Shown piece by piece: positions 23,194 through 41,293 of a stretch of 64,000 nucleotides of DNA. The position numbers and the translations under genes were made by a program. The stretch spans positions 20,208 through 84,207 of the forward strand of contig JAVBPE010000018.1 in NCBI GenBank assembly GCA_031549865.1. The letters are read 5' to 3'. Source of the DNA: Anaeroplasmataceae bacterium (lineage in GTDB: Bacteria > Bacillota_I > Bacilli_A > Acholeplasmatales > Anaeroplasmataceae). The notes below the pieces were generated by a model. The model made no database searches. It saw nothing but the letters and a program-made list of their open reading frames with translations, and was not told where the DNA came from. Position 1 is the stretch's first letter. Each line of letters opens with the position of its first letter.

Positions 23194-23572
23194 GGGCTAG
23201 TTATGGATTCGCCGTGGTTGATAAAACTTTATAAGCACGTCATGGTTGCGCATGTAAAAACGCCGAGGTTAAAATAACCGCAAAAACAAATTTATTTGCA
23301 CGTTCTAATAATATGAACGTTGCATACGCTTGCTAATTTAAATAACGTAAGCTCTCAAATATAAGCTTTCCTATGGCTTATATCTTGGGATCACTATAAT
23401 AGGATATATTTAGTTCGTGCCACCTTAACGAACTAAATGAAAACAATAAGGTTAGCTATAATCTAGTATGCTTTTCTACAAGATTATAGTGAATTTAAAT
23501 GAAAAGCTAAACGTGTAGAAAGTAAAGCCTAGTTGGCTGCGTACGGGAGTTCGAGTCTCCCCTGGTCCACCA
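23194..23572 (+). ncRNA. ssrA: tmRNA (SsrA)
   Basis: The 5' GGGCTAG pairs with the 3' CTGGTCC, with a G3:U wobble (alanine identity), then ACCA. T-arm 'GGGAGTTCGAGTCTCCC'. The 'AAAATAACC|GCA AAA ACA ...' resume context resembles E. coli 'AAAATAGTC|GCA'. The candidate tag ORF is 23280-23336 (AKTNLFARSNNMNVAYAC, then stop). Confidence 0.9.
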
Positions 23573-24255: not shown

Positions 24256-24284
24256 TTGACATACCAAATTTATTGTGATATAAT
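24256..24284 (+). promoter_or_regulatory. Near-consensus promoter of the R-M cluster
   Basis: TTGACA (24256-24261), 17 nt spacer, TGaTATAAT (24276-24284). The ORF-track TTG start at 24256 is this -35 box. Confidence 0.7.
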
Positions 24285-24309
24285 ACAATTACGATGGAGG
24301 TATACCAAA

Positions 24310-25905
24310 ATGATTAATAAATATTGGGTATTAGAAAGCTTATATAGAGCAACAGGAAATACAAATTCGATGGAGCCTATTTACAACGTATATAGAGTAT
24401 TAAAACTAAAAGAACTAGGGTTCGGATTAGAGTCAACGCCAGAAGACTTAATGTATGGGATGTATTCTGCAAATAGTTTTCCACCATTTAAAGGCGACGC
24501 TAGGAACTTTTATGAAATTTTTAAAATTATTTCTGGTTTTACAGTTGAAGGGTGCATTGATTATATAGAGTATATTCGTACCAGCCAGAAGAAATCTTCG
24601 GCTACTGAATTTATGATTCCAGATTCATTGGCAAAAATAATGATGAAATCCATTACTAATAGGGTATCAAAAATTTATATTCCGGATTGTGAAAAATACG
24701 GCATAGCATTTTACAATTTGATTAGTTCATACTCTGAATGTAAATTTTATACTTCTTGCGTGGATGCTGATCTGAAAAAGCTTTATCAACTATTATATGC
24801 ACATTTGAATGTTGAGTTTATAAATGCTGACATATACCGAGAAGACTTTGTGCATGAAAAGTTTGATATAATTATTTGCTTTCCTATCATGGGCGGTCGT
24901 TCGCTTATCGACAAAAGTGGTTTTATAAGTAATGAACCCGCCTTAATTGCAGCACAGAATTTGTTATATCATCTCTTTCCAGATGGAAATTTAACAATCG
25001 TATTACCGGCTAAAGTAACTTTTGGTGGTGGTGACGTTCAATACTTTAGAGATTATATAGATAGTAACTACAAGATTAATGAAATAAGTTCATTGCCAAA
25101 CAAATTATTTTATCCATACATGGCAATTAATACTTATTTATTTAACTTTTCAAATGGCGTAACAGAGGATATTATCTTACGTAAATATTCTCTTGAAAAA
25201 AACAATACAAGCGTTCTTCCTAAGTTAATAGTGGAAGATGAAAAGTTGTATTTTGAAGACGAATTTAGATCATTAAACGGCTGGTCTATTGATATGGCTT
25301 TTAATTCTAATGATGAAGAAATACTAAATTTCACAGAGTCACGAGTAAAAAAGAATCAGTTAAAAGATGTTGCAACCTTATTTAGAGGTAGAGCAATTAC
25401 TGAAAAAGCTGATGATGGTAATATTGCTATAATCAATATTTCAGATATTTCAGATACCGGCATTGATTATTCAAATTTATATTCTATTAATGAAGAAGAA
25501 CGTAAAATAAGCAGATATATTCTTGAAGAAGACGATGTGTTAATTACTGCCAGAGGAACGACTGTAAAAATCGCTGTGTTTAAAGAACAAACCAAGATTT
25601 GTATCCCGTCATCAAACATTATAGTTGCAAGAACAAACAAACTGTTAAAAGGCGCATATTTGAAACTCTTTTTAGAATCCAAGGTCGGCAGCAAGATGCT
25701 TAAGAACCTTCAAAGAGGCGCAACAATTGTAAACATTAATTATCAAGACGTTGAAATGATTGAAGTACCAGTTCCACCAATGGAAAAACAAGAAGAAGTT
25801 GTTGCTAACTATGAAGCTGGACTTGATTTGTATAAAAAAACAGTAACAGAAGCAGAAAAAGCTTGGAAGAAAATACAAGCAGTAATTGAAGATGAATTAT
25901 ATTAA
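24310..25905 (+). CDS. HsdM-like protein with degenerate catalytic motifs, fused to a single HsdS-type target recognition domain
   Basis: ATG at 24310 with ggagg 9 nt upstream. The N-terminal part aligns by eye with the two neighbouring HsdM proteins. 'EFMIPDSLAKIMM' aligns with 'EFYTPRTIVKLLV'. 'YIPDCEKYG' aligns with 'YDPACGTGG'. 'FDIIICFPIMGG' (CFPI at 24877-24888) aligns with 'FDCVIANPPFGL'. The C-terminal part is Methylase_S-like: 'LKDVATLFRGRAI ... DDVLITARGT ... GATIVNINYQDVEMIEVPVPPMEKQEE'. Confidence 0.7.
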   Translation: MINKYWVLESLYRATGNTNSMEPIYNVYRVLKLKELGFGLESTPEDLMYGMYSANSFPPFKGDARNFYEIFKIISGFTVEGCIDYIEYIRTSQKKSSATEFMIPDSLAKIMMKSITNRVSKIYIPDCEKYGIAFYNLISSYSECKFYTSCVDADLKKLYQLLYAHLNVEFINADIYREDFVHEKFDIIICFPIMGGRSLIDKSGFISNEPALIAAQNLLYHLFPDGNLTIVLPAKVTFGGGDVQYFRDYIDSNYKINEISSLPNKLFYPYMAINTYLFNFSNGVTEDIILRKYSLEKNNTSVLPKLIVEDEKLYFEDEFRSLNGWSIDMAFNSNDEEILNFTESRVKKNQLKDVATLFRGRAITEKADDGNIAIINISDISDTGIDYSNLYSINEEERKISRYILEEDDVLITARGTTVKIAVFKEQTKICIPSSNIIVARTNKLLKGAYLKLFLESKVGSKMLKNLQRGATIVNINYQDVEMIEVPVPPMEKQEEVVANYEAGLDLYKKTVTEAEKAWKKIQAVIEDELY

Positions 25906-25920: not shown

Positions 25921-28326
25921 ATGCTAGGTGCAATTATAGGAGATATTGTTGGTTCAAGATATGAATTCAATAATGTCAAAACAAAAGAATTTGAATTTTT
26001 AAATTATAAATGCTTTTTTACAGATGATTCTGTAATGACAATGGCTATTGCGAAGGCAATCATTGAAAGTAAAAAAGACTACAGTGATCTAAATGAAAAG
26101 GCTGTAAAATATATGAGAACTATTGGACGTAACTATCCAGACTCAGGATATGGTGGAAGATTTTATGAATGGATGTTCTCTGATAATCCACAACCTTATA
26201 ATAGTTTTGGTAACGGAGCGGCAATGAGGGTTAGTGCTTGCGGATGGGTAGCAAATTCTATTAAAGAGGCCGTTATGCTTTCAAAGAGAGTTACTGAAGT
26301 TACGCATAATAACGCCGAGGGGATAAAAGGTGCTGAGGCGGTAGCTGTTGCAATATATTTGGCCAGAACTGGAAAAAATATTTTTGAAATTAGAGATTAT
26401 ATAAACAAAAATTATTATCCAATGAATTTTAGACTAGATGATATTCGTGAAACATATCAGTTCAATGAGACTTGTCAAGACACAGTGCCGCAAGCGATAA
26501 CTGCATTTCTAGAGTCGAATAGTTTTGAAGATGCAGTAAGAAATGCTGTTTCGATCGGAGGCGATAGCGATACATTGGCAGCCATAACTGGCAGTATTGC
26601 TGAAGCTTACTATGGGATTCCAACAGAAATTAAGAAGCATGCAATAACTTATTTAGACGAAAGATTGCTTGCAATTTTAACAGAGTTTGAAAATATATAT
26701 CCTTCACTTATGGAAAAAATTATTGAATCCAATAGTGTTGGAATAAAAACAAAAGAAAAATCTATTAAGAATGGAGGAAGATCAAAAATGATAGAAGACA
26801 CGATGAATAACGCAGACATTGATTTGCTTGAAAGTGAATTGTCTGCTGAAGAAATTTCTAGTAAAAAATTGTTTAATCATTTATTTGAGGCTTGCAACAT
26901 TCTTAGAGGGCCAATTAACCAAGATGAATACAAAAGTTATGTAACACCAATTTTATTTTTTAAGAGAATTTCTGATGTATATGATGAAGAAACCGAAAAA
27001 GCTTTAAACGATTCTGGAGGTGATGTGGATTTTGCTAGTTTTGATGAAAATCACAGTTTTGTTATTCCAGACAATTGCCATTGGAATGACGTTAGAGATG
27101 CAAGTTCTAACATTGGTACAGCTATTGTAAATGCAATGAGTGGCATTGAAAGGGCCAATCCTGATACCTTAAGTGGAATATTCAGTAGTTTTGATGATGC
27201 TACTTGGACAGATAAATCAAAACTATCTGATGAAAGGTTGAAAAATTTGATTGAACATATGTCCTCAATTAAAGTTGGAAACAATAATTATTCTGCAGAT
27301 GTAATGGGAGATGCATACGAATTTTTAATTAAAAAATTCGCAGATCTATCCAAGAAAAACGCTGGAGAATTTTACACACCTAGAACAATAGTAAAATTGC
27401 TAGTAAATTTACTTGATCCAAAACCAGGTGATGAGGTTTATGATCCTGCATGTGGAACTGGTGGTATGTTGATAGAAGCAATTCATCATATAAATAATGA
27501 TAGATTAACCTATGGAAGAATATATGGTCAAGAGAAAAATCTTGCCACATCAGCAATCGCTAGGATGAATCTATTTTTACATGGCGGTAAGGACTTTAAG
27601 ATATTACAAGGAGATACGCTTCGCAATCCAAAATTTTTAAGAGCAGGAAAAGTGCAAAAATTTGATTGCGTAATTGCAAATCCTCCATTTGGTTTAGATA
27701 AATGGGGTGCAGATCAATTTGAAGTAGATCCATATGGTCGTAACATATGGGGGACACCATCTGATACAAGCGCTGATTTTGCATGGCTTCAACACATGGT
27801 TTCATCAATGAAAAACAAAAATGGAAGATGTGCGGTAATTTTACCGCAGGGAGTGTTATTCCATGGTAGTAAAGCTGGGGAAATGCGAAATAAGCTCATT
27901 TCATCGGATGTAATTGAATGTGTGATCACTTTAGTTGGCGGCGTATTTTTTGCTGCAGGAGTAAATGCATGTATTTTACTATTAAATAATAATAAGCAAA
28001 ATGTGCACAAAGGGAAAATATGTATGATTGATGCAACAAAAATCTATACTGCAAAACGAGCACAAAATATAATGACAGAACAGAACATAGAGGAAGTATT
28101 TAAATTGTATCAGAACTATACAAATGTTATTGAAAAATGTGAGATTGTAGCGATAAAAGATTTATTAGATACATTAATGCCAAACGTCTATATAAAAAAA
28201 ATAATAGCTGGAAAAGTTTCATCATTAGAAATTAAAAAGCAATATATAATTAATTATGAAAAAATGGTTATTAGCGAAATGAAAGCGAAAAAACTTTTAT
28301 TAGAGGGAGGATACTTAGATGAGTAA
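25921..28326 (+). CDS. hsdM: ADP-ribosylglycohydrolase domain fused to Type I R-M methyltransferase subunit HsdM
   Basis: The first ~270 aa are ARH/DraG-like: 'MLGAIIGDIVGS', 'FTDDSVMT', 'GNGAAMRV', 'GGDSDT' (26557-26574). The rest has an HsdM_N-like 'ILRGPINQDEYKSYVTPILFFKRISDVYDEE', motif I 'DPACGTGG' and motif IV 'NPPF' (27679-27690). An in-frame GGAGGA-9 nt-ATG lies at 26773-26790. Confidence 0.8.
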   Translation: MLGAIIGDIVGSRYEFNNVKTKEFEFLNYKCFFTDDSVMTMAIAKAIIESKKDYSDLNEKAVKYMRTIGRNYPDSGYGGRFYEWMFSDNPQPYNSFGNGAAMRVSACGWVANSIKEAVMLSKRVTEVTHNNAEGIKGAEAVAVAIYLARTGKNIFEIRDYINKNYYPMNFRLDDIRETYQFNETCQDTVPQAITAFLESNSFEDAVRNAVSIGGDSDTLAAITGSIAEAYYGIPTEIKKHAITYLDERLLAILTEFENIYPSLMEKIIESNSVGIKTKEKSIKNGGRSKMIEDTMNNADIDLLESELSAEEISSKKLFNHLFEACNILRGPINQDEYKSYVTPILFFKRISDVYDEETEKALNDSGGDVDFASFDENHSFVIPDNCHWNDVRDASSNIGTAIVNAMSGIERANPDTLSGIFSSFDDATWTDKSKLSDERLKNLIEHMSSIKVGNNNYSADVMGDAYEFLIKKFADLSKKNAGEFYTPRTIVKLLVNLLDPKPGDEVYDPACGTGGMLIEAIHHINNDRLTYGRIYGQEKNLATSAIARMNLFLHGGKDFKILQGDTLRNPKFLRAGKVQKFDCVIANPPFGLDKWGADQFEVDPYGRNIWGTPSDTSADFAWLQHMVSSMKNKNGRCAVILPQGVLFHGSKAGEMRNKLISSDVIECVITLVGGVFFAAGVNACILLLNNNKQNVHKGKICMIDATKIYTAKRAQNIMTEQNIEEVFKLYQNYTNVIEKCEIVAIKDLLDTLMPNVYIKKIIAGKVSSLEIKKQYIINYEKMVISEMKAKKLLLEGGYLDE

Positions 28327-29815
28327 TAGAATTAAATTAGAAGATCTTGAAACATATTTATGGGATTCAGCGGTTTTATTGAGAACAAATATTGATGCTG
28401 GAGCATATAAGCAATATATTTTCCCTCTATTATTTTTCAAAAGAATTTGTGATGTTTATGATGAAGAAACAAATACTGCTTTTGATAAATATGGAAATGA
28501 TGCATTTGAATTTGATGAAGATGAATTGCACACTTTTATAATTCCTAAAGGATATCATTGGAATGATGTTAGAGAAACAACAGAAAATGTTGGTTTGTCT
28601 ATTATAACAGCATTTAGAAAAATTGAAAAAGCTAATAAAGAAAAACTACGTGGAGTATTTGGGGATGCCGCTTGGACTAATAAGAACAGATTACCAGACA
28701 AATTACTTAAGGATATTATAGAACATTTTAGCACTCAAACTTTATCCATTGAGAATTGTCCGGAAGATGAACTAGGACAAGGCTATGAATACTTAGTAAA
28801 GAAATTTGCTGACGATAGTGGACATACAGCACAAGAATTTTATACTAACAGAACTGTGGTTCATCTTATGACAGAAATGCTTCAACCAAAATCAGGAGAA
28901 TCTATATACGATCCGACATGTGGAAGTGCAGGCATGTTAATTTCCGCTATTGCATATCTGAAGTTGAAAGGTGCAGAATGGAGAAATGTCTCTATATATG
29001 GTCAAGAGATAAATTCATTATCATCTTCAATAGCAAAAATGAACCTTTTTCTACATGGCGTAAAAGATTTTAATATCGTAAATGATGACACTCTTGCTAT
29101 GCCTGCGTTTATAGAAAAAGGGAAATTAAAACAATTTGATATGGTCCTAGCAAATCCACCATATTCTATAAGCCAATGGGATAGAAAAGCATTTGAATCT
29201 GATAAATATGGTAGAAACTTCTTAGGTGTTCCGCCACAAGGTCGAGCTGATTATGCATTTATTCAACATATTCTTAAAAGCATGAGCTCTCAAAGTGGAA
29301 GATGCGCTATTTTATTACCTCATGGTGTTTTAAGTAGAAATGAGGAAAAAATAATAAGAGAAAAACTTCTTAAAGCAGATTTGTTAGAATGTGTTGTGGG
29401 TATTGGCAAAAATTTATTCTATAATAGTCCAATGGAAGCATGCATTATGATTTGTAGAACAAGAAAGCCAAAAGACAGAGTTGGTAAAGTGCTTTTTATA
29501 AATGCTAAAAACGAAATTACTAGAAAAGATTCCTTTAGTTACTTAGAAAACAAACATATAGAAAAAATTGTAGAGGCTTATAATAATTTTGACAAAATAA
29601 ATAATTTTGCAGAAGTTGTTAGTATTGGTGATTTGTTATCAAATAATTCATCTTTGAGTATCGGATATTATGTGAATCATATTGTCGAAAAGGCGAATGA
29701 TAAAGGTTTTAGTATCACTGATTGTTATTTAGAATGGATTAGTACTTCTGAAAAAATTAATGAAAAAATGTCAAATATTGTCGATTTGATAAAAGGTGGT
29801 GTTGACAATGAGTAA
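28319..29815 (+). CDS. hsdM: Type I R-M methyltransferase subunit HsdM (second paralogue)
   Basis: 'LFFKRICDVYDEE', 'EFYTNRTVV', 'DPTCGSAG' and 'NPPY' (29153-29164). Its start overlaps the upstream stop by 8 nt. Confidence 0.9.
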   Translation: MSNRIKLEDLETYLWDSAVLLRTNIDAGAYKQYIFPLLFFKRICDVYDEETNTAFDKYGNDAFEFDEDELHTFIIPKGYHWNDVRETTENVGLSIITAFRKIEKANKEKLRGVFGDAAWTNKNRLPDKLLKDIIEHFSTQTLSIENCPEDELGQGYEYLVKKFADDSGHTAQEFYTNRTVVHLMTEMLQPKSGESIYDPTCGSAGMLISAIAYLKLKGAEWRNVSIYGQEINSLSSSIAKMNLFLHGVKDFNIVNDDTLAMPAFIEKGKLKQFDMVLANPPYSISQWDRKAFESDKYGRNFLGVPPQGRADYAFIQHILKSMSSQSGRCAILLPHGVLSRNEEKIIREKLLKADLLECVVGIGKNLFYNSPMEACIMICRTRKPKDRVGKVLFINAKNEITRKDSFSYLENKHIEKIVEAYNNFDKINNFAEVVSIGDLLSNNSSLSIGYYVNHIVEKANDKGFSITDCYLEWISTSEKINEKMSNIVDLIKGGVDNE

Positions 29816-30959
29816 AATTAAATTAGGTGATGTATTAATTAGGGTGAAAGAATCGGTAGATAAAGATAATACTGATTTAGTTTATTATATTGGTGGAGAG
29901 CATTATGAATCAAGATCACTTACAATTAATAATAAAGGCAAAATAGAAGGTAGTACAATAGGCCCAGCTTTTAGCACAAAGTTCAAAGCGGGTGATGTAT
30001 TGTTAATGTCAAGAAATCCTCATTTAAGAAAAGCTGGAATTGTGAATTTTGATGGTATCTGTTCAGACGTAAGCTACATCATAAGAACTAAAGATGAAAA
30101 TGTTGTAATGCAGCAGTTTATTCCTATTTTATTTCAAAGCGATCTTTTTTGGGATTTTGCTGAAAAAAATAAAAAAGGATCAACTAATTTTTTCTTAAAT
30201 TGGAGTGATTTCGAAAGATTTGAGTTTGAATTGCCTACTTTGGATAAACAACAACAGTTAGTTAATGTTTTATGGGCTATAAATGACAATGTAGAATGTT
30301 ATAAGGAAATGCTATTGCAAAATGATAAATTAATTAGAGCAGAATTCGACGAAATGTGTGAAAACATAAAAGAAACTATTTCTTTAGCAGATTGTTGCAA
30401 AATCCATGCAAGAATTGGCTGGCAAGCATTGACAAAAAAAGAGCATTTAACCTCAGGAGAATTTTTGCTAATAACCGGTACTGATTTTTTAGATGGTGAA
30501 ATAAATTATTCAACCTGCGTCTATGTTTCTGAAGACAGGTACAAAATGGACGAACATATAATTTTAAAAGAGAATGATGTGCTTGTTACTAAAGATGGAA
30601 CGATTGGAAAAGTGGCAATTGTTCGTAATTTACCAAAACCTGCAACATTAAATAGTGGAATATTCGTTATAAGGCCAGATGATAGATTTAATAAAGAATT
30701 TATCTCATATGTTTTTACTGGTCCTGTCTTTGCAGAATTTGTTGATAAAGTTAAAACTGGAGCAACAATTAAGCACTTAAATCAAAATAAAATGTTGCAA
30801 TTCAAGATACCTCTTCCAACATATAAAAAGCAAGAAGATTTTGCAAAATTTGTTTGCATGATAATGGAAATTAAAAGATCATTGCAAGAAGGAATAATCC
30901 ATTTAAATAATGTTTATCAAAGAATCGTAAATCAAAATCTATCATTAAAGGAGGAATAA
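29808..30959 (+). CDS. hsdS: Type I R-M specificity subunit HsdS (two TRDs)
   Basis: I prefer the ATG at 29808, which overlaps the hsdM end. Two Methylase_S-like halves each end in a conserved helix: 'LPTLDKQQQLVNVL' and 'LPTYKKQEDFAKFV'. Confidence 0.85.
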   Translation: MSKIKLGDVLIRVKESVDKDNTDLVYYIGGEHYESRSLTINNKGKIEGSTIGPAFSTKFKAGDVLLMSRNPHLRKAGIVNFDGICSDVSYIIRTKDENVVMQQFIPILFQSDLFWDFAEKNKKGSTNFFLNWSDFERFEFELPTLDKQQQLVNVLWAINDNVECYKEMLLQNDKLIRAEFDEMCENIKETISLADCCKIHARIGWQALTKKEHLTSGEFLLITGTDFLDGEINYSTCVYVSEDRYKMDEHIILKENDVLVTKDGTIGKVAIVRNLPKPATLNSGIFVIRPDDRFNKEFISYVFTGPVFAEFVDKVKTGATIKHLNQNKMLQFKIPLPTYKKQEDFAKFVCMIMEIKRSLQEGIIHLNNVYQRIVNQNLSLKEE

Positions 30960-30960: not shown

Positions 30961-33876
30961 ATGTCAGTATTTAATGAAGACAATACAATAGAGCAAATGA
31001 TCATTGCCACATTAAGTAGCAACGGCTGGAAGTTTGTTTCACCTGAAGACTTGAATCGTGAATTATCTGATGTGATGGTTGAATCAATGGTTAAGGATGC
31101 CTTAATTAGATTAAATCCTGAAATTGCGGAAGAACCGTCTCGTGCCGATGAAGTAATTTATAAGCTTCGTACATTGATTAATAGTGTTCAGGCACACAAT
31201 TTGGTCACTCAAAACGAAACATTTAAAAAATGGATCTTTGAAGAAAATTCTTATCCATTTGGTAAAGATGGAAGAATGGTACCAATCAGATTCTTTGGTA
31301 CCATAACAAAAGAAAACCTTAGCTTAAATGAATATGTAGTTACTAATCAATGGTCGTATCCTTGCGATGAAGGTGGAAAAAGACTAGACATTGTGCTTTT
31401 AATCAATGGATTTCCTATTGCGATTGGTGAATTAAAAACGCCGGTTCGTAGTGCTATTTCTTGGGTTGATGCTGCTTCGGATATTTTGAGTTATGAAAAA
31501 AGCATTCCTCAAATGTTTGTAACTAATGTATTCAATTTTGCAACAGAAGGAAAGTGTTTTAGATATGCAGCAATAAATGCAAACATGAATTTATGGGGAC
31601 CTTGGCATACAGATACACATAAAATTGAAGGCGGGTTAGCTGACGTTAAAATTAGTATTGAAGATATGATTACTCCTGAAAAAATAATGGATATTTTCCA
31701 ATTCTTCACAATGTTTGCAACGGATAAGAAATATAGAAAATATAAGATTATATGTCGCTATCAACAATATGAAGGAGCGAATTCTATAGTTCAAAGAGTT
31801 TTGACCGGATATCCAAAGAAGGGCTTGATATGGCATTTTCAAGGTTCTGGTAAATCGCTACTTATGGTATTTGCAGCACAAAAACTACGTATGGTTCCTG
31901 AATTAAGAAATCCAACAGTAGTAATAGTAGATGATCGTATTGATCTTGAAACACAAATTACCGCTACATTTAATGCATCAGATATTCCGAATCTTGCAAG
32001 CGCTGGTTCTAAAGAAGAGTTGATATCTTTCTTTAAGGGAGATATGCGAAAAATACTTATTACAACAATATTTAAATTTGGCGAAGTCGAAGGTGAATTA
32101 AATAGACGTGACAATATTATATTAATGGTTGATGAAGCGCATAGAACTCAAGAAGGTAATCTTGGTGAAAAAATGAGGCTTGCACTTCCAAACGCATTTT
32201 TCTTTGGATTAACTGGTACGCCAATTAATAGAGTTGACCGTAATACATTTGCAACTTTTGGTGCAGATGAGGATAGAAGCGGCTATATGAGCAAATATTC
32301 ATTCTCAGATTCTATTAGAGACAAAGCTACCTTACCTCTAAACTTTGAACCAGTTCCGGTGGACTTGCATGTTGATAAGGACACTTTGGATACAGAGTTC
32401 GATGTTTTAACGGAAAGCCTAACAGAGGAGCAAAGGGCGCAACTATCAGCAAGAGTAAACATGAAAGCAATATTTTATAGCCCTGCTCGTATTAAGAAAG
32501 TCTGCGAGCATATTGTAAAACACTACAGAGAGAAAATCGAGCCAAATGGTTATAAAGGACAAGTTGTGTGTTATGACCGAGAATGTTGTATCCGCTATAA
32601 AGAAGAATTTGACAAATTAATGGGTGAAGAAGAAACAACTGTAGTTATAGATACGAATAGCGATAAGGAAGATAGATATAAAAAGTTTAGACGAGATAGA
32701 GATGAAGAAGGACGAGTTCTTGATTCATTTAGGGATCCTAAAAGCTCATTAAAACTTGTAATTGTTACGGCAAAACTATTAACTGGCTTTGACGCTCCAA
32801 TTTTACAAGCAATGTATCTTGATAAACCGATGAAAGATCACACATTGTTACAAGCTATTTGTAGAACTAACCGTACTTATGATGAAGGAAAAACACATGG
32901 ATTAATTGTTGACTACACTGGTATTTTTGATAATGTGGCAAGAGCATTAGACTTCGATGAAAACACTATGAAGAAAATTATTTCTAACATTGAAGAAATA
33001 AAGAAACAATTACCTGCCTTGCTAAAAAAATGTTTGAGTTACTTTATGGGTGTGGATCGCACTGTACAGGGTTGGGAAGGTTTAATGGCTGCACAGGAGT
33101 GCCTACCAACTAACAAAGAAAAAGATGCTTTTGCTGCAGATTATAGAGTGTTAAACAGAGCATGGAATGCATTATCACCAGACGATTTCTTATTTCCATA
33201 TAGCGTTGATTATCAGTGGCTTTCAAAAGTTTACGAATCAGTTAAACCAACTGATGGAACTGGAAAATTAATCTGGAGTACTCTCGGACCAAAGACAATT
33301 GAATTGGTGCACAGAAATATATCTGTTGGAGCAGTCCATGATAATGAAGAAATACTAACGCTTGATGCCAATTTAATTGATGAGTTCATTTCAAAGAATG
33401 GCGATATTAAGAAAGCAACGAAGAAAATTGAAATTAGCCTGGTTTCCAAAATATTAGGACATAGCAACGAGCCGAGATTTGTAAAACTTGGTGAGAAACT
33501 TGAGGCTCTGCGTGAAAAACATGAGCAAGGATTAATCACTAGTATAGAATTCTTAAAGTTACTTTTGGAATTGGCAAAAGAAGCTGCACAAGCAGAAAAA
33601 GAATACGTGCCTGAAGATGAAGTGAATAAAGGTATCGCTGCTCTGACAGAATTGTTTAATAGCGTCAAAAATAGAGCAACTCCAATTATCGTTGAACGCA
33701 TTGTAAAAGATATTGATGACATAGTTAGAATTGTTAGATTCGATGGTTGGCAAAACACAACAGCAGGTAAGCAGGAAGTAAAAAAGGCGTTAAGAAGTGT
33801 TGTATGGATTAAATACAAGATTAAAGATATTGATGTATTTGATAAGTCATACAAGTATATAGAACAATACTATTAA
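30961..33876 (+). CDS. hsdR: Type I restriction enzyme R subunit HsdR
   Basis: N-terminal PD-(D/E)xK 'RLDIVLLINGFPIAIGELK', SF2 motif I 'FQGSGKSL', motif II 'MVDEAHRTQ', motif VI 'QAICRTNR'. The C-terminal helical domain is typical of HsdR. 971 aa. Confidence 0.9.
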   Translation: MSVFNEDNTIEQMIIATLSSNGWKFVSPEDLNRELSDVMVESMVKDALIRLNPEIAEEPSRADEVIYKLRTLINSVQAHNLVTQNETFKKWIFEENSYPFGKDGRMVPIRFFGTITKENLSLNEYVVTNQWSYPCDEGGKRLDIVLLINGFPIAIGELKTPVRSAISWVDAASDILSYEKSIPQMFVTNVFNFATEGKCFRYAAINANMNLWGPWHTDTHKIEGGLADVKISIEDMITPEKIMDIFQFFTMFATDKKYRKYKIICRYQQYEGANSIVQRVLTGYPKKGLIWHFQGSGKSLLMVFAAQKLRMVPELRNPTVVIVDDRIDLETQITATFNASDIPNLASAGSKEELISFFKGDMRKILITTIFKFGEVEGELNRRDNIILMVDEAHRTQEGNLGEKMRLALPNAFFFGLTGTPINRVDRNTFATFGADEDRSGYMSKYSFSDSIRDKATLPLNFEPVPVDLHVDKDTLDTEFDVLTESLTEEQRAQLSARVNMKAIFYSPARIKKVCEHIVKHYREKIEPNGYKGQVVCYDRECCIRYKEEFDKLMGEEETTVVIDTNSDKEDRYKKFRRDRDEEGRVLDSFRDPKSSLKLVIVTAKLLTGFDAPILQAMYLDKPMKDHTLLQAICRTNRTYDEGKTHGLIVDYTGIFDNVARALDFDENTMKKIISNIEEIKKQLPALLKKCLSYFMGVDRTVQGWEGLMAAQECLPTNKEKDAFAADYRVLNRAWNALSPDDFLFPYSVDYQWLSKVYESVKPTDGTGKLIWSTLGPKTIELVHRNISVGAVHDNEEILTLDANLIDEFISKNGDIKKATKKIEISLVSKILGHSNEPRFVKLGEKLEALREKHEQGLITSIEFLKLLLELAKEAAQAEKEYVPEDEVNKGIAALTELFNSVKNRATPIIVERIVKDIDDIVRIVRFDGWQNTTAGKQEVKKALRSVVWIKYKIKDIDVFDKSYKYIEQYY

Positions 33877-33897
33877 AATTTAAGGGAGGTGAACTGC

Positions 33898-35817
33898 ATG
33901 AGTTGCAATTCTGTTGAGAAATATATCGAAAACAAATATCGTGATTATATATTTTCTAAGATTTTAAAATTTTACAATGAAATAAAAAGTCATTTAGATA
34001 TGCATACTTATGCAGTTCCATATCCAACTTTTATAACATTAGACGAAATTACGGTAGAAAAGGTGTATTTTAAGGATGATATATTTGGAAAGAATCTTGA
34101 GTTCAAATTAGTTGTTAGAGCAGATTTTATTCTTAAAGGAGATCGCTTTAATGATTATGAGACAGATACACTTTACCGTAAGTTTACTGTTACGGGTACA
34201 GGAATTTTAAATAATGGAATTAGCAAATTCTACATTTCTGATGTTGAAGAGTATATAAATCAAGCGTATCAATATAAACATGCCTTGTCTGCGTTTGCTA
34301 TTCCATATATTTCAACGGATGATTTAGAATATAGAGCAGAAGAGTTTTTGACTAAGCATTGTAAAGAAGCACTTGAAGAACCGATGCAGTTACCATTAAA
34401 TAAAATTTTGATCAATATGAATGTAACTGTCTTTCATGCACCGTTAGGCAAAAGAATATTTGGAAAAACATTTTTTGCTCAATCAACTGAAAAAATTTAC
34501 AATGATGATAATGAAGTAGAAGATAAGCAAATATACGAAAGAACTATTTTAATAGATCCAGATGTGTTTTTCTTTAGAAATATAGGAACTTATAATAATA
34601 CAGTTATTCATGAGTGTATCCACGTGGAATATCATTCTAATTATTTTGAGCTTCAAAAACTAATAAATAGTTCATTAAAATCAATTGCATGTAAGGTTAA
34701 CAAGGGTTCAAAACAATTGAATACTAATGAACAAAAAGCACTAGATTTTATGGAATGGCAAGCAAGTATGTTGGCACCAAGAATACTGATGCCTGCGAAA
34801 ACAACAAAAATCAAATATCAGCAATTAATATCTGAAATTAATCAAGATTTCCCGTCATATCTAAAAGGAAAAAAGATGGAGATTTTGATTGACAGGTTAG
34901 CAGAGTTTTTTCAAGTCTCAAAACAAGCTGCAAAAATAAGACTTATAGATTTAGGCGTTGATGCTGCTGCTGGTGTGCAAAACTATGTAAATGGCAAAAA
35001 GATTCCTAGTTTTGCATTTAAAAGTCATTCTTTAAATCGTAATCAAACATTCATAATTGATTTTAAAGATTCAGTTAAAGAAATTAAAGTTAATCAAACG
35101 TTAAATTCACTTTCAATCGAAGGAAAGCTAGCATACATAAACGGAATGGTTGTGCTAAACTTACCGAAATATGTTATTAAAGATGATTTCGGTAATAAAG
35201 TTCTGACAAACTATGCTTTGGAGCATGTTGATGAATGTGCGTTTGTCTTTACAAAAGATACCTCACCAAACAAGAACACTTACAGTGAATATTTAGACAC
35301 AATGTGTTTTCTCTGCAGGCCAGAAAGCAAAGATGACTATGTTTCTGGTAACTATGATAGGACTTCAACTTCCAACAGACAACTTGAAAATGCCGGAATA
35401 TCCTTTTTAGATGAGTTAGACGATATTCATAATGCTAAAGCGTTGCTAAAAAAGATGAACGGAGAGTTTGCTGAAGATTTTCTAACTGTTGTAACTGAAT
35501 TAGGATATTTGAAATCAGATGGAATTCCCAATTATTATGCTATTTCTAAATTAACAAGTGTAACAGACCATACTATAAAGAATTATTTGGATGGTACAAG
35601 CACGCCACAAAAAGAAAAGTTGATAGCTATTTGCGGAGGATTATGTTTACATACAAAAGTGGCATATAAACTTCTTGAAAAAGCTAATCTTACAATTTTA
35701 AATAGTATGAATGAAACTGATCTTACTTATTGTGCTCTGATTGAAAGACATTACGATGAAGGTCTTGAAAAATGGAATGAATATTTAAGCGAAGCTAATT
35801 TTAATCAACTACCTTAA
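33898..35817 (+). CDS. Large ImmA/IrrE-type (M78, HExxH) metallopeptidase-domain protein with C-terminal XRE-like HTH
   Basis: I prefer the ATG at 33898 (gggagg 8 nt upstream), 21 nt after hsdR. Has 'HECIH' (34609-34623) and a downstream 'MEWQASMLAPRILMP' matching the ImmA ExxAxxFAxxLLMP block. The C-terminal 'ISKLTSVTDHTIKNYLDGTSTPQKEKLIAICGGL' is HTH-like. The N-terminal ~230 aa is unassigned. Confidence 0.65.
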   Translation: MSCNSVEKYIENKYRDYIFSKILKFYNEIKSHLDMHTYAVPYPTFITLDEITVEKVYFKDDIFGKNLEFKLVVRADFILKGDRFNDYETDTLYRKFTVTGTGILNNGISKFYISDVEEYINQAYQYKHALSAFAIPYISTDDLEYRAEEFLTKHCKEALEEPMQLPLNKILINMNVTVFHAPLGKRIFGKTFFAQSTEKIYNDDNEVEDKQIYERTILIDPDVFFFRNIGTYNNTVIHECIHVEYHSNYFELQKLINSSLKSIACKVNKGSKQLNTNEQKALDFMEWQASMLAPRILMPAKTTKIKYQQLISEINQDFPSYLKGKKMEILIDRLAEFFQVSKQAAKIRLIDLGVDAAAGVQNYVNGKKIPSFAFKSHSLNRNQTFIIDFKDSVKEIKVNQTLNSLSIEGKLAYINGMVVLNLPKYVIKDDFGNKVLTNYALEHVDECAFVFTKDTSPNKNTYSEYLDTMCFLCRPESKDDYVSGNYDRTSTSNRQLENAGISFLDELDDIHNAKALLKKMNGEFAEDFLTVVTELGYLKSDGIPNYYAISKLTSVTDHTIKNYLDGTSTPQKEKLIAICGGLCLHTKVAYKLLEKANLTILNSMNETDLTYCALIERHYDEGLEKWNEYLSEANFNQLP

Positions 35818-36215: not shown

Positions 36216-36854
36216 ATGACTAAAACGAAAAAAACAAAGGATTTATATCCGAACATCTATGGCTACGGTAGCCTAGAACAACTAATGGCAGATCCAACAA
36301 GGTTTGGTGATAACCCAGACAAGCCACTAACAAGTTGGACAGCTTATAAAGATGCTGATGGCGACACGAGGTTTGTGCCATGCACAGAGGAGTTCTTTCA
36401 TTATATGAGAAATGAGGAACGCAACGACAGGAGGAAGAAGGACATCGAATCAAGATGTATGATCCCGTCTGAGAAATATGGGTTAGTAAAGTGTAGAGAA
36501 GATTGCAATCATTGTCCTTATAAGCAGAATGAGCTTGAGCCAGATGCTACAACGGATTTTGCTAGAACTGGAATAGCGGTATCTATTGATTACATGTATG
36601 AAAATTATGAATTTGAGTTTAGTGATGGTTCGTTTGAGGCTGATTGTGAAAAAAGAGAAAAGGAAGAACGTGACGCAGAAATGTGGAGACTTATTGACGA
36701 GTTAGGCGAAACAGACCAGACCATATTAAAACTTTACAACCAAGGTAAGACTGATGCTGCAATAGCTCTTGTTGTTAAGAAATCTCGAAGTGTTGTTCAG
36801 GAACGCAGAGTTAAACTAATCGACATGTTGAAAGAAAAATTGAAAAATTTTTGA
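36216..36854 (+). CDS. Phage protein with Cys-rich centre and C-terminal sigma-70 region-4-like HTH
   Basis: 'ETDQTILKLYNQGKTDAAIALVVKKSRSVVQERRVKLIDML' resembles sigma r4/LuxR-type HTH. 'CREDCNHCPY' is a Cys cluster. Confidence 0.55.
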   Translation: MTKTKKTKDLYPNIYGYGSLEQLMADPTRFGDNPDKPLTSWTAYKDADGDTRFVPCTEEFFHYMRNEERNDRRKKDIESRCMIPSEKYGLVKCREDCNHCPYKQNELEPDATTDFARTGIAVSIDYMYENYEFEFSDGSFEADCEKREKEERDAEMWRLIDELGETDQTILKLYNQGKTDAAIALVVKKSRSVVQERRVKLIDMLKEKLKNF

Positions 36855-36945
36855 AACTAGTCGGCAAACCATAAGTTACTTAGCCATTAATCCTTTGAGA
36901 AGGAAGTGTAGCCCTTTTCTAAAAAATTAAAAAGGAGGAATCGCT

Positions 36946-37125
36946 ATGCAAGACAAAGCAATGGCTAACAAAAAGCCGTTTCTAACTGCAAATGATTTGA
37001 TAGAAAGTTTGCTGATAATAAGTGAAACGACAAAAACGTTAGCGCTAGAAGTTATGTTGCTTCCAGCAGAACAAAACAAAGATGGAGGTGAAGAAGATGT
37101 CAACATCTCCAACAAAGCACAGTAG
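36946..37125 (+). CDS. Hypothetical small phage protein (59 aa; below the ORF-track cutoff)
   Basis: ATG at 36946 with aggagg 6-7 nt upstream. Open for 59 codons to the TAG at 37123-37125. Overlaps the next gene start. Confidence 0.4.
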   Translation: MQDKAMANKKPFLTANDLIESLLIISETTKTLALEVMLLPAEQNKDGGEEDVNISNKAQ

Positions 37126-38281
37126 GAAGTACAGCCCAAGTAAAAGTAGCACGTGGCTTAATTGTCCTTTGAGTACGTTGTTAAATGATGGATCAAGTCA
37201 AGAAACAAATCCACAAGCTGAATTTGGAACACAATGCCATGAACTTAGCGCAGCGTTGATTTGCAAATCACTTAACATAGTTGATTTTGACAATGAACCG
37301 ATGTCAGTTAACGAGATTGTTAAGGGATTAGATATATATTCGCCGGAAATGCAAGACCTTGCCGATGGATATGCAGACTATGTAATTAACACTGTTGAGT
37401 ATGAAAAAAAGATGTCAAGCAGCGAGCCATTAGTAGTAGTTGAGCAGTATCTTGAAATGGATTTTGATGCTGATGCAGGTGGAACACTTGACTGTGGCAT
37501 TATTTCAAGTTCAAACGGTGGAACATTGACAGTTATAGACCTAAAGACTGGTAGAGGTCCAGTTGCTGCTTTCAATTCAGAGACAGGTATGTTTAATACT
37601 CAGCTAGGTATTTATGCACTGTATTTTTACAAAGCATACAAGGACATTTACCCAATCAAAAATGTGCGACTTGTTATCTATCAACCTGTGATTTCCAACA
37701 CTAACGATTTTGAAATGTCTATCGAAGATTTACTAAAATTTGAAACTGATATTTTAATCCCTGCAGTAGCAAAAACAAAGGTAAGTATACCTGAAGCAAA
37801 AAGTGGTAGTTACTGCAAATGGTGTGCTGGAAAAGCAATCTGCATTCAACGAGCAGAAGACAATATGAAACTTATTAAAGAGGCAAGTAAACCCTTAGAA
37901 AAAATGACAGACAATGAAATTGAAAAGTTGCTACCAAAGATGGACGAGCTGATTTCATTTGCAGAAGACGTCAAAGAATCTGCACTCAAGAAAGCATTAA
38001 ACGGACATAAGTGGAGGAATTTCAAACTCGTTCATACCAAGTCTACAAGAAAAGTATCTGACGAAGATGCAGTTATCAAAGTATGTGAGGATGCTGGATT
38101 TGATCCATATGCACCTAAAAAACTGGTTGGTATTACAGAACTTACAAAGCGATTAGGTAAAGACAAATTTAATGAGTTAATTGGAAACTATCTAACAAAG
38201 CAAGAAGGCGCAATTGTTTTAGTTCCAAGTGCAGATGCTCGTGACGAAGTAATTATCTTAAAAGAAGGAGAAAAAAATTAA
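37097..38281 (+). CDS. PD-(D/E)xK nuclease, Cas4/DUF2800-like
   Basis: I prefer the ATG at 37097 (ggagg 8 nt upstream). Has 'YSPSKSSTWLNCPLS', 'LDCGII ... VIDLKTG' (D ... DxK) and a C-terminal 'CKWCAGKAIC' (four-Cys pattern). Confidence 0.7.
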   Translation: MSTSPTKHSRKYSPSKSSTWLNCPLSTLLNDGSSQETNPQAEFGTQCHELSAALICKSLNIVDFDNEPMSVNEIVKGLDIYSPEMQDLADGYADYVINTVEYEKKMSSSEPLVVVEQYLEMDFDADAGGTLDCGIISSSNGGTLTVIDLKTGRGPVAAFNSETGMFNTQLGIYALYFYKAYKDIYPIKNVRLVIYQPVISNTNDFEMSIEDLLKFETDILIPAVAKTKVSIPEAKSGSYCKWCAGKAICIQRAEDNMKLIKEASKPLEKMTDNEIEKLLPKMDELISFAEDVKESALKKALNGHKWRNFKLVHTKSTRKVSDEDAVIKVCEDAGFDPYAPKKLVGITELTKRLGKDKFNELIGNYLTKQEGAIVLVPSADARDEVIILKEGEKN

Positions 38282-39240
38282 TGTTAAACATTACTACGGG
38301 TAAAGAACAACGCCCATTAAAAGTTGTCATTTATGGTCCTGAAGGAATAGGAAAAAGCACATTTGCTAGTCAGTTTCCGAGCCCAATATTTATTGATACT
38401 GAAGGTGGGACAAGCAATTTGGATATCAGAAGAATTAAATGCAATAAATCATGGAATGAGCTTATTTCAATAGTCAATGAAATTATTACAACACCGAACA
38501 TTTGCAAGACGCTTGTAATAGACACTGCAGATTGGTCAGAGATTTTATGTATTAATTCAGTTTGTGAGAAGTACCGAAAAAGCAATATTGAGGATTTTGG
38601 ATTTGGAAAGGGATATGTGTACTTGCAAGACGAGTATTCAAAACTACTTTCACTATTAGACAAGGTAATTGATGCAGGAATTAATGTTGTGGTTACCGCT
38701 CATGCAAAGTTAAGAAAATTTGAACTTCCGGAGGAACAAGGTGCTTTTGACAGATATGAAATGAAACTTACAAAGCAAGTGGCACCGTTGCTAAAAGAAT
38801 GGTGCGACACATTATTGTTTTGCAATTACAAGATTTATGTTGTCACAACGGAAAACAATTCTAAAAAAGCGCAAGGTGGCAAACGAGTTTTATACACAAC
38901 TCATAATCCAACATATGACGCCAAGAACCGCTTTAATTTGGCGGAAGAACTTGAACTTGATTTCGCATCGGTAGCGCACCTTTTTGCGGCACAGGCGCAA
39001 ACACAGGCCGACACAAAGCCAGTTGTATTTCAAGAGCAAACAGTTATTAACAAGCTAATCAAAATGATTGAAGATGCAGGTATAGCAGAAGACGATATCA
39101 AAAAAGTAGTAGCAGCTCGTGGCCACTATCCAGAGAGTGCAGCGATAACTGAATATTCAGAAGATTTTATAACACGATGGATAATTCCAAATTGGAAGAA
39201 GATCGTAGAAACAATTAATAAAGAAAAAGGAGAGAACTAA
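38281..39240 (+). CDS. AAA_24/Sak4-like RecA-fold ATPase
   Basis: Walker A 'IYGPEGIGKSTF' and Walker B-like 'TLVIDT'. Typical phage replication/recombination module position. Confidence 0.7.
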   Translation: MLNITTGKEQRPLKVVIYGPEGIGKSTFASQFPSPIFIDTEGGTSNLDIRRIKCNKSWNELISIVNEIITTPNICKTLVIDTADWSEILCINSVCEKYRKSNIEDFGFGKGYVYLQDEYSKLLSLLDKVIDAGINVVVTAHAKLRKFELPEEQGAFDRYEMKLTKQVAPLLKEWCDTLLFCNYKIYVVTTENNSKKAQGGKRVLYTTHNPTYDAKNRFNLAEELELDFASVAHLFAAQAQTQADTKPVVFQEQTVINKLIKMIEDAGIAEDDIKKVVAARGHYPESAAITEYSEDFITRWIIPNWKKIVETINKEKGEN

Positions 39241-39242
39241 TT

Positions 39243-39704
39243 ATGAACAACAATAATGATATGTTAATGGATTGGAATGATGCCATTGAAACCGACGGAC
39301 AGGAATTTGTCCTACTTCAAGAAGGTGATTATAACTTCTTGGTAACTAATTTTGAAAGAGGTCGCTTTCCAGGTGGGCCTAAAGTTCCAGCTTGCAATAA
39401 AGCAACTATTACAGTGCAAGTTCAAACAGCAAATGGCGCAGCTACAGTTAAATTTGATTTGTTGCTTTATCGCTCACTTGAATGGCGCATATCTGCATTC
39501 TTTAGATGTATTGGTCAGAAAAAGCATGGTGAAAAATTGACAATGGAATGGAATAAGGTGGTTGGATCTATTGGTAGAGCGCACTTCAAACAACGTTCTT
39601 ACACCAATCAATATGGAGACGAGAAGTATGTTAATGACCTAGATCGTTTTATTGATTACAATCCAGAATTTTTTGTTAATGATGATCCTTCGTTACCGTT
39701 CTAG
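39243..39704 (+). CDS. Phage protein, DUF669-like (usual partner of AAA_24)
   Basis: Called from position and size after the AAA_24 gene. No catalytic motif. Assignment tentative. Confidence 0.45.
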   Translation: MNNNNDMLMDWNDAIETDGQEFVLLQEGDYNFLVTNFERGRFPGGPKVPACNKATITVQVQTANGAATVKFDLLLYRSLEWRISAFFRCIGQKKHGEKLTMEWNKVVGSIGRAHFKQRSYTNQYGDEKYVNDLDRFIDYNPEFFVNDDPSLPF

Positions 39705-39715
39705 AGGTGAGTAAT

Positions 39716-41293
39716 ATGAAGTTAAGACCATATCAAAACAGTGCAGTTGATGCTGTAAAAAATGAGTGGAGTGTAGGACATAAAAAAACCTTGATAGTAC
39801 TTCCAACCGGAACGGGAAAAACAATAGTTTTTTCTAAGGTTGTTGAAAACGAAACAAAAGACGGTAGTAAAGCACTAATTTTAGCACATCGTGGTGAGCT
39901 GCTTGATCAGGCATCAGATAAGCTAAAACAAGCAAGTGGTATGGACTCAGCCTTGGAAAAGGCTGAGTCCACATCACTCAACTCTCCATTGCAAGTTACG
40001 GTAGCATCAGTTCAAACACTATCACAAGAAAAAAGACTATTTAAATTTCCGCAAGATTACTTCAAGACGATTGTGGTGGACGAGGCCCATCATTCCATGA
40101 GTGATACATACCAAAGGATATTAACTTATTTTAACTCTGCTAATGTTTTAGGAGTAACAGCCACACCAGATAGAGCAGATCAAAAAAACTTAGGGAAGTT
40201 CTTTGATTCTAAAGCCTACGAATACACAATGCATCAAGCAGTAAAAGAGGGCTATCTCAGTCCGATCAAGGCGCAAATGATACCGCTAGAGTTAAACATC
40301 AACAATGTAGGACTTTCAAATGGAGATTATGCAGTTGGCGAAATAGGCTCAGCACTTGAGCCATACTTAAATCAAATTGCACTTGAAATGATTAATTATT
40401 GTAAAGGTCGAAAGACCGTAGTGTTTTTGCCACTTGTAAAGACTTCACAAAGGTTTTGCGAACTGCTAAATCTTCATGGATTTAGGGCAGCAGAAGTTAA
40501 TGGGAATAGCACCGATAGAGAAAAAATACTTACAGATTTTGATGACGGTGAATACGACGTGTTGTGTAATTCTATGCTATTGACCGAAGGGTGGGATTGT
40601 CCGTCTGTTGACTGTATAGTTGTACTTCGACCAACTAAAGTCAGAAGTTTATATCAGCAAATGGTTGGACGTGGAATGCGACTTGCACCCGATAAAAAAG
40701 ATTTGTTGTTACTAGATTTTCTATGGATGACTGAACGACATGATTTATGTAGACCATCGGCGTTAGCATCAAAAGACGAAGAAGTTGCAAAGCGTATTGA
40801 CAAAATGATGCTTGACAAAGAAAGCGGCATTGATTTAATGGCAGCAGAGATTGAAGCAGAAAATGACATCATTCAAGAACGTGAAAATGCACTTGCTCGT
40901 GAACTTGCGGCAATGAGAAGGAAACAACAAAAGCTTGTTGATCCAATTCAATATGCATTTTCTATAGCATCAGAAGATTTACAAAATTATGAGCCTACAT
41001 TTATGTGGGAAATGGCACCTGCTAGTGCAAGACAACTTGACTATCTTGAAAAGCATGGTATCTACCCTGACACAATAACTAATTGTGGAATGGCTAGTTT
41101 ACTTATTGATAAATTAAAGAACAGACAAATAGAAGGACTAGCAACACCAAAGCAAATCAGATTTTTGGAGCGTTATGGGTTCTTGCATGTTGGCATGTGG
41201 CAGTTTGATGCGGCAAGCAAAATGATAACAAGAATATCAACAAACAACTGGTATTTACCAAGAGGAATTGACGCTAAAAATTATCAACCGTAG
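39716..41293 (+). CDS. SF2 DEAD/DEAH-box helicase
   Basis: I prefer the ATG at 39716. 'LRPYQ', motif I 'LPTGTGKT', motif II 'VVDEAHH', motif III 'GVTATP', motif VI 'QQMVGRGMR'. Confidence 0.85.
   Translation: MKLRPYQNSAVDAVKNEWSVGHKKTLIVLPTGTGKTIVFSKVVENETKDGSKALILAHRGELLDQASDKLKQASGMDSALEKAESTSLNSPLQVTVASVQTLSQEKRLFKFPQDYFKTIVVDEAHHSMSDTYQRILTYFNSANVLGVTATPDRADQKNLGKFFDSKAYEYTMHQAVKEGYLSPIKAQMIPLELNINNVGLSNGDYAVGEIGSALEPYLNQIALEMINYCKGRKTVVFLPLVKTSQRFCELLNLHGFRAAEVNGNSTDREKILTDFDDGEYDVLCNSMLLTEGWDCPSVDCIVVLRPTKVRSLYQQMVGRGMRLAPDKKDLLLLDFLWMTERHDLCRPSALASKDEEVAKRIDKMMLDKESGIDLMAAEIEAENDIIQERENALARELAAMRRKQQKLVDPIQYAFSIASEDLQNYEPTFMWEMAPASARQLDYLEKHGIYPDTITNCGMASLLIDKLKNRQIEGLATPKQIRFLERYGFLHVGMWQFDAASKMITRISTNNWYLPRGIDAKNYQP

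Follow-up and report, generated by a model that had tools for sequence, protein, structure and literature searches.

The DNA stretch described here, referred to below as the window, comprises 64,000 nucleotides from an Anaeroplasmataceae bacterium (GenBank assembly GCA_031549865.1, contig JAVBPE010000018.1, positions 20,208 to 84,207), and positions in it are counted from its first letter, with all of its features named here lying on the forward strand. Its gene at 25921..28326 starts with ATG and encodes a protein of 801 amino acids (aa) in which an ADP-ribosylhydrolase (ARH) domain is joined to HsdM, the methylating subunit of Type I restriction-modification (R-M) systems. The frame is open throughout, with neither stop nor frameshift, and Pfam recognises three domains in the product, namely ADP_ribosyl_GH (PF03747) at aa 1-233 (E 2e-35, 123 bits against a cut-off of 26.2), HsdM_N at aa 319-447 (9e-25) and N6_Mtase at aa 458-748 (3e-87), the latter two covering 26875..28164. 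As delimited by Pfam, PDB matches, AlphaFold2 (AF2) and residue conservation, the ARH domain spans aa 1 to ~266 (25921..26718), its end being marked by stand-alone homologues that stop at the equivalent of ~aa 266. It carries the motifs GDIVGS at aa 7-12 (GDIVGS..E at 7-15), TDDS at 34-37, TH at 128-129 and GGDSDT at 213-218 (26557-26574), and all ligands of the binuclear metal site (E15, T34-D35-D36, D215, D217 and T218) are present together with the TH motif. AF2 models aa 1-260 as an all-helical domain with a pLDDT of ~90, and sequence matches of this part in the PDB include ARH3, MJ1187, 2CWC and DraG. Its scores lie far below the equivalog cut-offs of both the DraG profile TIGR02662 (59.6 bits against 337) and the Tri1 profile NF041672 (40.8 bits against 490). 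The HsdM part displays AGEF at aa 481-484, motif I DPACGTGG at aa 508-515 (27442-27465) and motif IV NPPF at aa 587-590 (27679-27690). Between the two parts, homologue alignment and AF2 secondary structure outline a fusion-specific linker of ~45 aa (aa 267-308, 26719..26844), predicted as a beta-hairpin (264-275) followed by a helix (287-304) that leads into the HsdM N-domain.

The original prediction had described an ARH domain fused in frame to a complete HsdM, with intact metal-binding motifs, and had asked for the junction to be confirmed. The uninterrupted frame and the three Pfam domains bear out this architecture, codon arithmetic on the window sequence shows the quoted motifs and coordinates to be correct, and the metal-binding motifs are conserved in 35 of 36 fused homologues. 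The junction is genuine, as the identical 801-aa protein (P0271) occurs on three independently assembled public contigs and more than 100 protein clusters share the architecture. That assembly or annotation produced the fusion artificially, or that its ARH is a decaying and inactive remnant, is scarcely credible. A single homologue, in an Akkermansiaceae metagenome-assembled genome (MAG), reads GGNSNT and sits among broken neighbour genes, as a remnant would; against this stand the three independent contigs, the occurrence of the clusters in isolates as well as metagenomes, and an ARH that is as conserved as the methylase. The fusion gene is thus real and joins an apparently active ARH, whose catalytic activity we infer, to a predicted adenine-methylating subunit.

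The genes that follow place this subunit in a two-methylase system of the PacII type, in which M1 (AGEF/NPPF) places N6-methyladenine (m6A) on one strand and M2 (AAEF/NPPY) places N4-methylcytosine (m4C) on the other (Morgan et al. 2016, PMC5100572; PMC9613975). Directly after the fusion lies hsdM2 (28319..29815), whose Shine-Dalgarno (SD) sequence, GGAGG, is embedded in the final codons of the fusion gene. Its product (M2, 498 aa) was identified by Pfam, is 41% identical to the M1 part of the fusion and is the predicted m4C subunit, with NPPY and with AQEF where AAEF has been described. It is followed by HsdS (29796..30959, 387 aa), a specificity subunit with two target recognition domains (TRDs) identified by Pfam and PADLOC, and by the restriction subunit HsdR (30961..33876, 971 aa), which matches TIGR00348 at 2.6e-144 and the Pfam domains HSDR_N, SWI2_SNF2 and T1R_D3-like. 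The structures 7VRU and 7VS4 represent the PacII M1M2S methyltransferase, the reference for Type I systems called 'non-canonical' (Zhu et al. 2022, PMC9613975). Of the PDB entries, 7VRU_A is the best match to the HsdM portion of the fusion (and likewise 7VS4 chain A; 1e-131, against 3e-115 for chain B), whereas HsdM2 best matches 7VRU_B (6.5e-156, against 8e-119 for chain A), and a Foldseek search with the AF2 model of the fusion also places 7VRU_A at the top. In addition, the order M1-M2-S-R in the window is that described for PacII-type systems. Because AGEF and NPPF occur in the fusion, NPPY occurs in the second gene and the two proteins are reciprocal best matches of PacII M1 and M2, the gene is assigned as the predicted M1 subunit of a PacII-type m6A/m4C Type I R-M system. 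The earlier description as a complete HsdM holds in this respect, but its place as the M1 half of a heterodimeric M1/M2 pair, visible in the PDB matches, the motifs and the gene order, had been overlooked.

Related loci were collected in a scan of one genome per species, which returned 190 relatives and from which 80 loci were kept; a further 23 loci were viral. At every genome or viral locus whose contig reaches far enough, M2 and then HsdS lie downstream of the fusion. The cassette in the window begins with a predicted sigma-70 promoter, read by eye from the sequence as TTGACA-17-TATAAT (24256..24290), and a gene at 24310..25905 for a methylase-specificity ('MS-like') protein of 531 aa counted from M19, the length also given by public gene calls. 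This protein matches Methylase_S (1e-14) and, weakly, N6_Mtase in Pfam, as well as Specificity_I in PADLOC. It consists of an HsdM-like N-domain, a degenerate methyltransferase domain and one HsdS TRD with the conserved C-terminal helix. Motifs I and IV are degenerate, reading IPDCEKYG and CFPIM (NPIF in a relative). In ~20 genome loci and at most of the viral ones, the MS-like gene immediately precedes either the fusion or HsdR, and its product could be an alternative specificity or scaffold subunit. A search for MADS, BREX or another multi-gene defence system gave only weak generic M and S similarity, far under the cut-offs.

Distribution of the fusion and of its ARH domain

Full-length fusions are held by 35 of the 80 kept loci, and 5 more carry truncated or broken copies. 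The carriers in the scan belong to Bacillota, Akkermansiaceae, Synergistaceae, an alphaproteobacterial MAG and a Methanomethylophilaceae archaeon. With the full-length protein as query, at least 120 clusters of 795-814 aa and 68-100% identity were found, including Paenibacillus polymyxa, the Bacillus cereus group, Robertmurraya and Acholeplasma; gut Bacillota, Fibrobacter and Akkermansia are also among the carriers. All matches listed in an initial homologue search were at most 549 aa long, whereas the full-length query gave proteins of ~800 aa, and the difference is read as a property of the search rather than as biology. Public entries name the fusion only 'N-6 DNA methylase' or 'type I restriction enzyme M protein', and the former annotation conceals the ARH domain. 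All fused proteins fall into one cluster at 50% identity, and by this measure the fused family is a tight clade that appears to have spread horizontally.

Comparison of the homologues indicates that purifying selection acts on the ARH part about as strongly as on the HsdM part. In the 36 fused homologues, no change is seen at D8, S12, T34, D35, D36, S37, H129, E133, S216 or T218, and E15, D215 and D217 are retained in 35, while the metal-site residues are invariant in 46 closer homologues. The sole fused homologue with both catalytic Asp residues changed is the Akkermansiaceae copy already mentioned (L033, 10001-12436), whose MS-like and phrog_4031 neighbours are fragmented; this copy looks to be decaying.

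The ARH-hsdM1 copies of several relatives break at an identical nucleotide. The break follows ..TAY GA and lies in the codons immediately ahead of motif I DPACGTGG. Broken copies were seen at L081-L084 (11632 onward), L050 (10001-11575 and downstream), L009 and L016 and in the proteins P0047, P0102, P0001, P0216 and P0266, and the equivalent of the break in the window lies at ~27439-27444. At L081-L084 the break is followed by a large serine recombinase, an HTH_17 (excisionase-like) protein and a different Type I R-M system, and at L050 by three genes on the reverse strand and by phage genes resembling those of the window. Fragments from right-hand junctions begin at DPACGTGG. The pattern suggests that integrative elements may use the motif-I codons of ARH-hsdM1 as attB, which would inactivate the R-M system.

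Cassettes with M1 and M2 and without the ARH are found in PacII, as represented by the M1 protein P0123 (501 aa, 59% identical), at the viral locus L102, on plasmids and in Liberibacter phages; the ARH is therefore an add-on. At L102 the ARH-less M1 has its own promoter and the N-terminus MAKKKTQAVSCEETTSQQLF. No fused form was found among PLSDB plasmids or INPHARED phages, though both hold ARH-less two-methylase systems. Neither the 80 genome loci nor the 23 viral loci contained the ARH and hsdM1 as separate adjacent genes, an arrangement that the original prediction had proposed to look for, and the ARH in the scanned loci was either fused or stood alone with no R-M gene within 10 kb.

The ARH domain alone, when used as query, retrieves thousands of relatives. 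Stand-alone ARHs of 266-300 aa and 60-76% identity are common, and some are closer to the window ARH than other fused ARHs are. The fused ARH is predicted to be essentially the same enzyme as the widespread stand-alone ARH. Members of the subfamily (P0148-P0268, 52-62% identical) are also fused, at either end, to diverse modules, among them DUF6508 (7 of 60), SseB, HD_4, protein kinases, GNAT, a TnsA-like endonuclease, an RNase_T exonuclease, flavodoxin and DUF1810. Pfam recognises nothing in most of the partner regions, and the partners share no clear theme. Two further stand-alone ARHs (47-53% identical) are encoded by Porphyromonas phage005b (L110, 6001-6783) and Bacteroides phage Versailles (L111, 5001-5774), where they close early clusters of small genes in temperate Bacteroidales phages, with an anti-repressor, an integrase or an orphan DNA methyltransferase close by. 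Their position in these phages is compatible with a counter-defence role.

A putative internal translation start in the linker

Within the linker, an internal SD sequence, GGAGGA (26773-26778), is followed after nine nucleotides by an in-frame ATG (26788-26790, M290), and this element (26773..26790) is a putative start for an ARH-less M1 of 512 aa. Two explanations had been put forward for it, a relic of a once-separate hsdM start and a means of making both a fused and an unfused methylase. The former is rejected as formulated, since the ARH-less orthologues (PacII M1, P0123 and L102) start at the equivalent of ~aa 301-309, some 11-19 residues after M290, and since no locus with a separate, adjacent ARH gene was found.

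The latter gains support as a possibility from codon usage. The first Gly codon of the motif (Gly285) is GGA in all 21 homologues that encode Gly-Gly at this site, where it places GGAGG 9-10 bases before the ATG, whereas five other conserved Gly-Gly sites, used as controls, have GGA in 8-19% of sequences and GGA makes up only 17-50% of Gly codons in those homologue genes. The signature equals that of a genuine embedded SD sequence, as the positive control Gly796, which lies in the SD sequence of hsdM2, has GGA in 32 of 35. Near the internal SD sequence, the codons of the flanking Thr, the second Gly and Arg vary at their third positions, and four further independent cases of the internal SD sequence are found in viral contigs. 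Over 19 distinct contexts the naive probability of the pattern is ~1e-9, a figure to be read with the sequences' relatedness by descent in mind. Within the window alone the motif is weak, since 2 of the 22 deep-internal GGAGG motifs there have an in-frame ATG behind them, and its significance derives from the comparative codon analysis rather than from the window count. M290 is invariant in 46 close homologues, and in the wider set only I, V or S followed by Met takes its place, with two exceptions.

In a large sub-clade that includes the window, the internal SD sequence thus appears to be kept by selection as nucleotides, and for this reason both ARH-M1 (801 aa) and plain M1 (512 aa) are probably made. 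There is, however, a sizeable if lesser chance that the GGAGG-N9-ATG is unused, being either a by-product of Gly-Gly coding combined with a structural Met in the linker helix or a pause site, in which case the 801-aa protein would be the only product. M290 does lie at the start of the predicted helix 287-304, its position tolerates I, V or S when the next residue is Met, and an in-frame GGAGG with ATG is found elsewhere in the window too. About half of the family lacks the internal SD sequence and Met is missing from both linker positions in two homologues, so that two isoforms would in any case not be universal. Against an unused site are the constancy of GGA in the 21 homologues and the four viral cases despite third-position variation nearby, together with its frequency in the controls and in the true SD sequence. 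Moreover, where the SD sequence is absent, both residues vary freely (GS, GD, GN, SS, SE, KS and others), as would be expected if nucleotides and not amino acids were selected. If the predicted dual isoforms are indeed produced, they would represent a new way to set the subunit composition of a Type I enzyme.

Prophage context and possible roles of the ARH domain

The R-M cassette lies at the left end of an island that also contains a prophage. The left boundary is a tmRNA (ssrA) gene found by ARAGORN (23194..23572), with SmpB and RNase R upstream, and the island begins at the 3' end of the tmRNA, from which ~700 bp without an integrase lead to the cassette promoter. Within the window, neither an integrase nor an att repeat was located. 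After HsdR follows a 642-aa protein (33889..35817) that matches phrog_4031 over its full length (PHROGs, 2e-131) and, more weakly, PF06114 (Pfam, 1e-4, M78/IrrE-like HExxH). This protein also gives a weak PADLOC match to capP, and in most viral contigs it is found with the cassette. It was considered as an R-M component and set aside, since it belongs to a phage family and is more likely a prophage gene; it may be a regulatory protease of the prophage. The prophage itself (36216..64000) encodes, by PHROGs and Pfam, an exonuclease, a Sak4-like annealing protein, a helicase, a primase, S-adenosylmethionine (SAM) synthetase, a DNA methylase, terminase, portal, capsid and tail proteins. The SAM synthetase has all three MetK domains and the methylase is an N6_N4 DNA methylase (Pfam; presumed ORFs at ~45249-49046). 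In company with a Type I cassette, they seem to mark a large commitment to DNA methylation. The same cassette, with the MS-like protein, HsdR, ARH-M1, M2, HsdS and the phrog_4031 protein, is seen in ~20 IMG/VR viral contigs, where it borders the same phage genes. The cassette is therefore carried by a prophage family and is horizontally mobile, a feature that emerged from the PHROGs matches and the IMG/VR co-occurrence and had been missed in the original prediction.

Assembly of PacII starts with M1, which attaches to S by its C-terminal tail, and M2 joins afterwards; once DNA is bound, M1 and M2 enclose it in a clamp formed by their N-terminal and catalytic domains (PMC9613975). By analogy, an N-terminal appendage on M1 would be expected to sit at the clamp, beside the bound DNA. 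With a confidence slightly short of even, we favour the view that the window encodes a prophage-borne PacII-type M1 whose tethered ARH removes ADP-ribose at the M1M2S clamp, with two isoforms probable. As in PacII, M1 (NPPF/AGEF) would bind HsdS first and methylate adenine in one half-site, M2 (NPPY) would then be recruited and methylate cytosine (m4C) in the other, and HsdR would add restriction. The ARH, with its complete di-metal site, would be held by the conserved ~45-aa linker next to the DNA and the complex, where it could strip ADP-ribose from DNA bases or ends or from R-M subunits. Methylation and restriction would then keep working when a phage, another defence or a toxin system deploys an ADP-ribosyltransferase (ART). 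Precedents for such a use of the fold are Imm-ARG/Tri1, an ARH-fold enzyme that counters an ART (PMC3482391), DarG3, an ARH-like antitoxin of a DNA ADP-ribosyltransferase (PMC13069673), and host ARG systems predicted to act against viral ARTs (Iyer et al. 2022, PMC9503650). We infer both the substrate and the benefit of the ARH, and the data fit a DNA, a protein or a small-molecule target equally well. The original prediction had likewise proposed erasure of ADP-ribose marks on DNA or on the R-M complex, a role that fits all observations. A form of this proposal directed at DNA, in which the ARH on the M1M2S clamp would clear ADP-ribose from DNA bases or ends so that the DNA stays readable, methylatable and cuttable, and in which the selected internal start would set the ratio of the isoforms, is by itself unlikely. 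The ADP-ribose would in that case be placed on DNA by an invader masking its own genome or by DarT-like systems acting on the DNA of the element.

Several observations weigh against removal of ADP-ribose at the clamp. To our knowledge, there is no ART on record that is aimed at Type I enzymes. In the AF2 model of the full protein (pTM 0.67) the ARH is docked on HsdM without confidence. Stand-alone and fused ARHs interleave in a neighbour-joining tree, albeit on unsupported branches, and the 76 immediate neighbours of stand-alone ARHs fall into 119 unrelated Pfam families, mostly housekeeping, with no ART or R-M partner found among them. Since stand-alone ARHs sit in such surroundings, the substrate is probably general rather than specific to R-M. 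Furthermore, the abundance of the fusion could stem from one fusion event and horizontal transfer rather than from repeated selection for tethering. Finally, human ARH3 is inactive on thymidine-linked ADP-ribose in the context of DNA (PMC12879935).

The main competing explanation, which is as compatible with the data as the removal of ADP-ribose at the R-M complex, treats the ARH as anti-defence cargo that the prophage carries to reverse marks placed by DarT-like and other host ARTs on the DNA or proteins of the element; its fusion would serve co-expression or loose localisation to DNA, with no role in R-M. The cassette is found repeatedly at the end of one prophage family, the same ARH subfamily stands alone in early or accessory clusters of Porphyromonas and Bacteroides phages, by an anti-repressor and an orphan DNA methyltransferase, and a further member lies on a Phocaeicola conjugative transposon together with a Type I system (PMC11005914). 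PMC11825919 describes phages that carry orphan antitoxin-like hydrolases against DarTG, and the internal start would let M1 act without the ARH. In the scanned loci, however, the ARH is never a separate gene beside hsdM1 and, where the two are associated, is always fused to it through a conserved linker, many carriers are chromosomal with no recognisable phage genes in their 10-kb flanks, and most stand-alone homologues lie in ordinary chromosomal contexts. Considering both sides, we regard a pure cargo role as rather improbable.

The promiscuous fusion of the subfamily to unrelated domains, as is often seen in sensor modules, and the housekeeping surroundings of its stand-alone copies could also fit a regulatory role. 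The ARH might bind or hydrolyse a small ADP-ribose derivative, such as ADP-ribose, O-acetyl-ADP-ribose or products of NADase defence, and so tune methylation against restriction, e.g., on establishment in a new host. ARH-fold enzymes do hydrolyse O-acetyl-ADP-ribose, and their contexts suggest a wider range of substrates (PMC9503650). Yet the catalytic metal ligands are fully conserved, which speaks for turnover rather than mere binding, and phyletic patterns have been argued to point to a preference of ARG domains for macromolecular conjugates (PMC9503650); a sensor is quite improbable.

Should the ARH act on DNA or on the complex, ADP-ribosylation would be an unrecognised anti-restriction or DNA-masking strategy, with the R-M system carrying the countermeasure, and if the fusion indeed erases ADP-ribose from DNA, this would be the first R-M enzyme with built-in demodification. 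The fusion is abundant and under purifying selection, and it is tractable through culturable strains of Paenibacillus polymyxa and the Bacillus cereus group.

Comparison with known systems

Type I R-M and ADP-ribosylation are both central in phage-host conflict, and we know of no enzyme that joins the two in one polypeptide. Full-text literature searches (subscription-only papers lay outside their scope) found no description of an ARH-HsdM fusion, and the string 'ribosyl' is absent from the texts of PMC5100572 and PMC9613975. PacII-type systems share with the window the two paralogous M genes, M1 and then M2 beside S, followed by R, and the same layout of HsdM_N, catalytic domain and C-terminal tail. 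They differ in that PacII M1 and other characterised M1s start at the equivalent of ~aa 309, without the ARH that the window M1 carries, and in that the window cassette has an extra pseudo-methylase-TRD gene before the operon.

The window ARH shares the PF03747 fold, the D/E-T-D-D and G-G-D-S/T-D-T ligands and the TH motif with the ARH/DraG superfamily (ARH3, ARH1, DraG, Tri1/Imm-ARG and MJ1187), in which Tri1/Imm-ARG uses the fold to undo hostile ADP-ribosylation. In contrast to these members, it is shorter (~266 aa), has no transferase nearby, is fused to a DNA methyltransferase subunit and matches no equivalog. DNA ADP-ribosylation has been linked to R-M through DarTG, which is often inserted in Type I R-M operons (PMC8883491), and in DarHTG the antitoxin DarG3, which acts against a DNA ADP-ribosyltransferase, is reported to be ARH-like (PMC13069673), as is the hydrolase in the window. 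Canonical DarG, however, is a macrodomain protein, and the window hydrolase is a covalent part of HsdM rather than of a toxin-antitoxin pair. A DarT or other ART toxin gene was looked for, and no ART domain was found in the six cassette proteins or among the best 25 of the 35 Pfam families of the prophage. In the ARG-centric host systems (PMC9503650), as in the window, an orphan ARH/ARG occurs in a conflict context without a transferase and is predicted to remove ADP-ribose from macromolecules. These systems, known from Actinobacteria, Planctomycetes and Proteobacteria, pair the ARG with Nudix or WYL regulators, phosphatases or chaperones, and none of them is an R-M fusion. The ARH fold and the PacII-type Type I systems are known parts, and their fusion is plentiful in databases.

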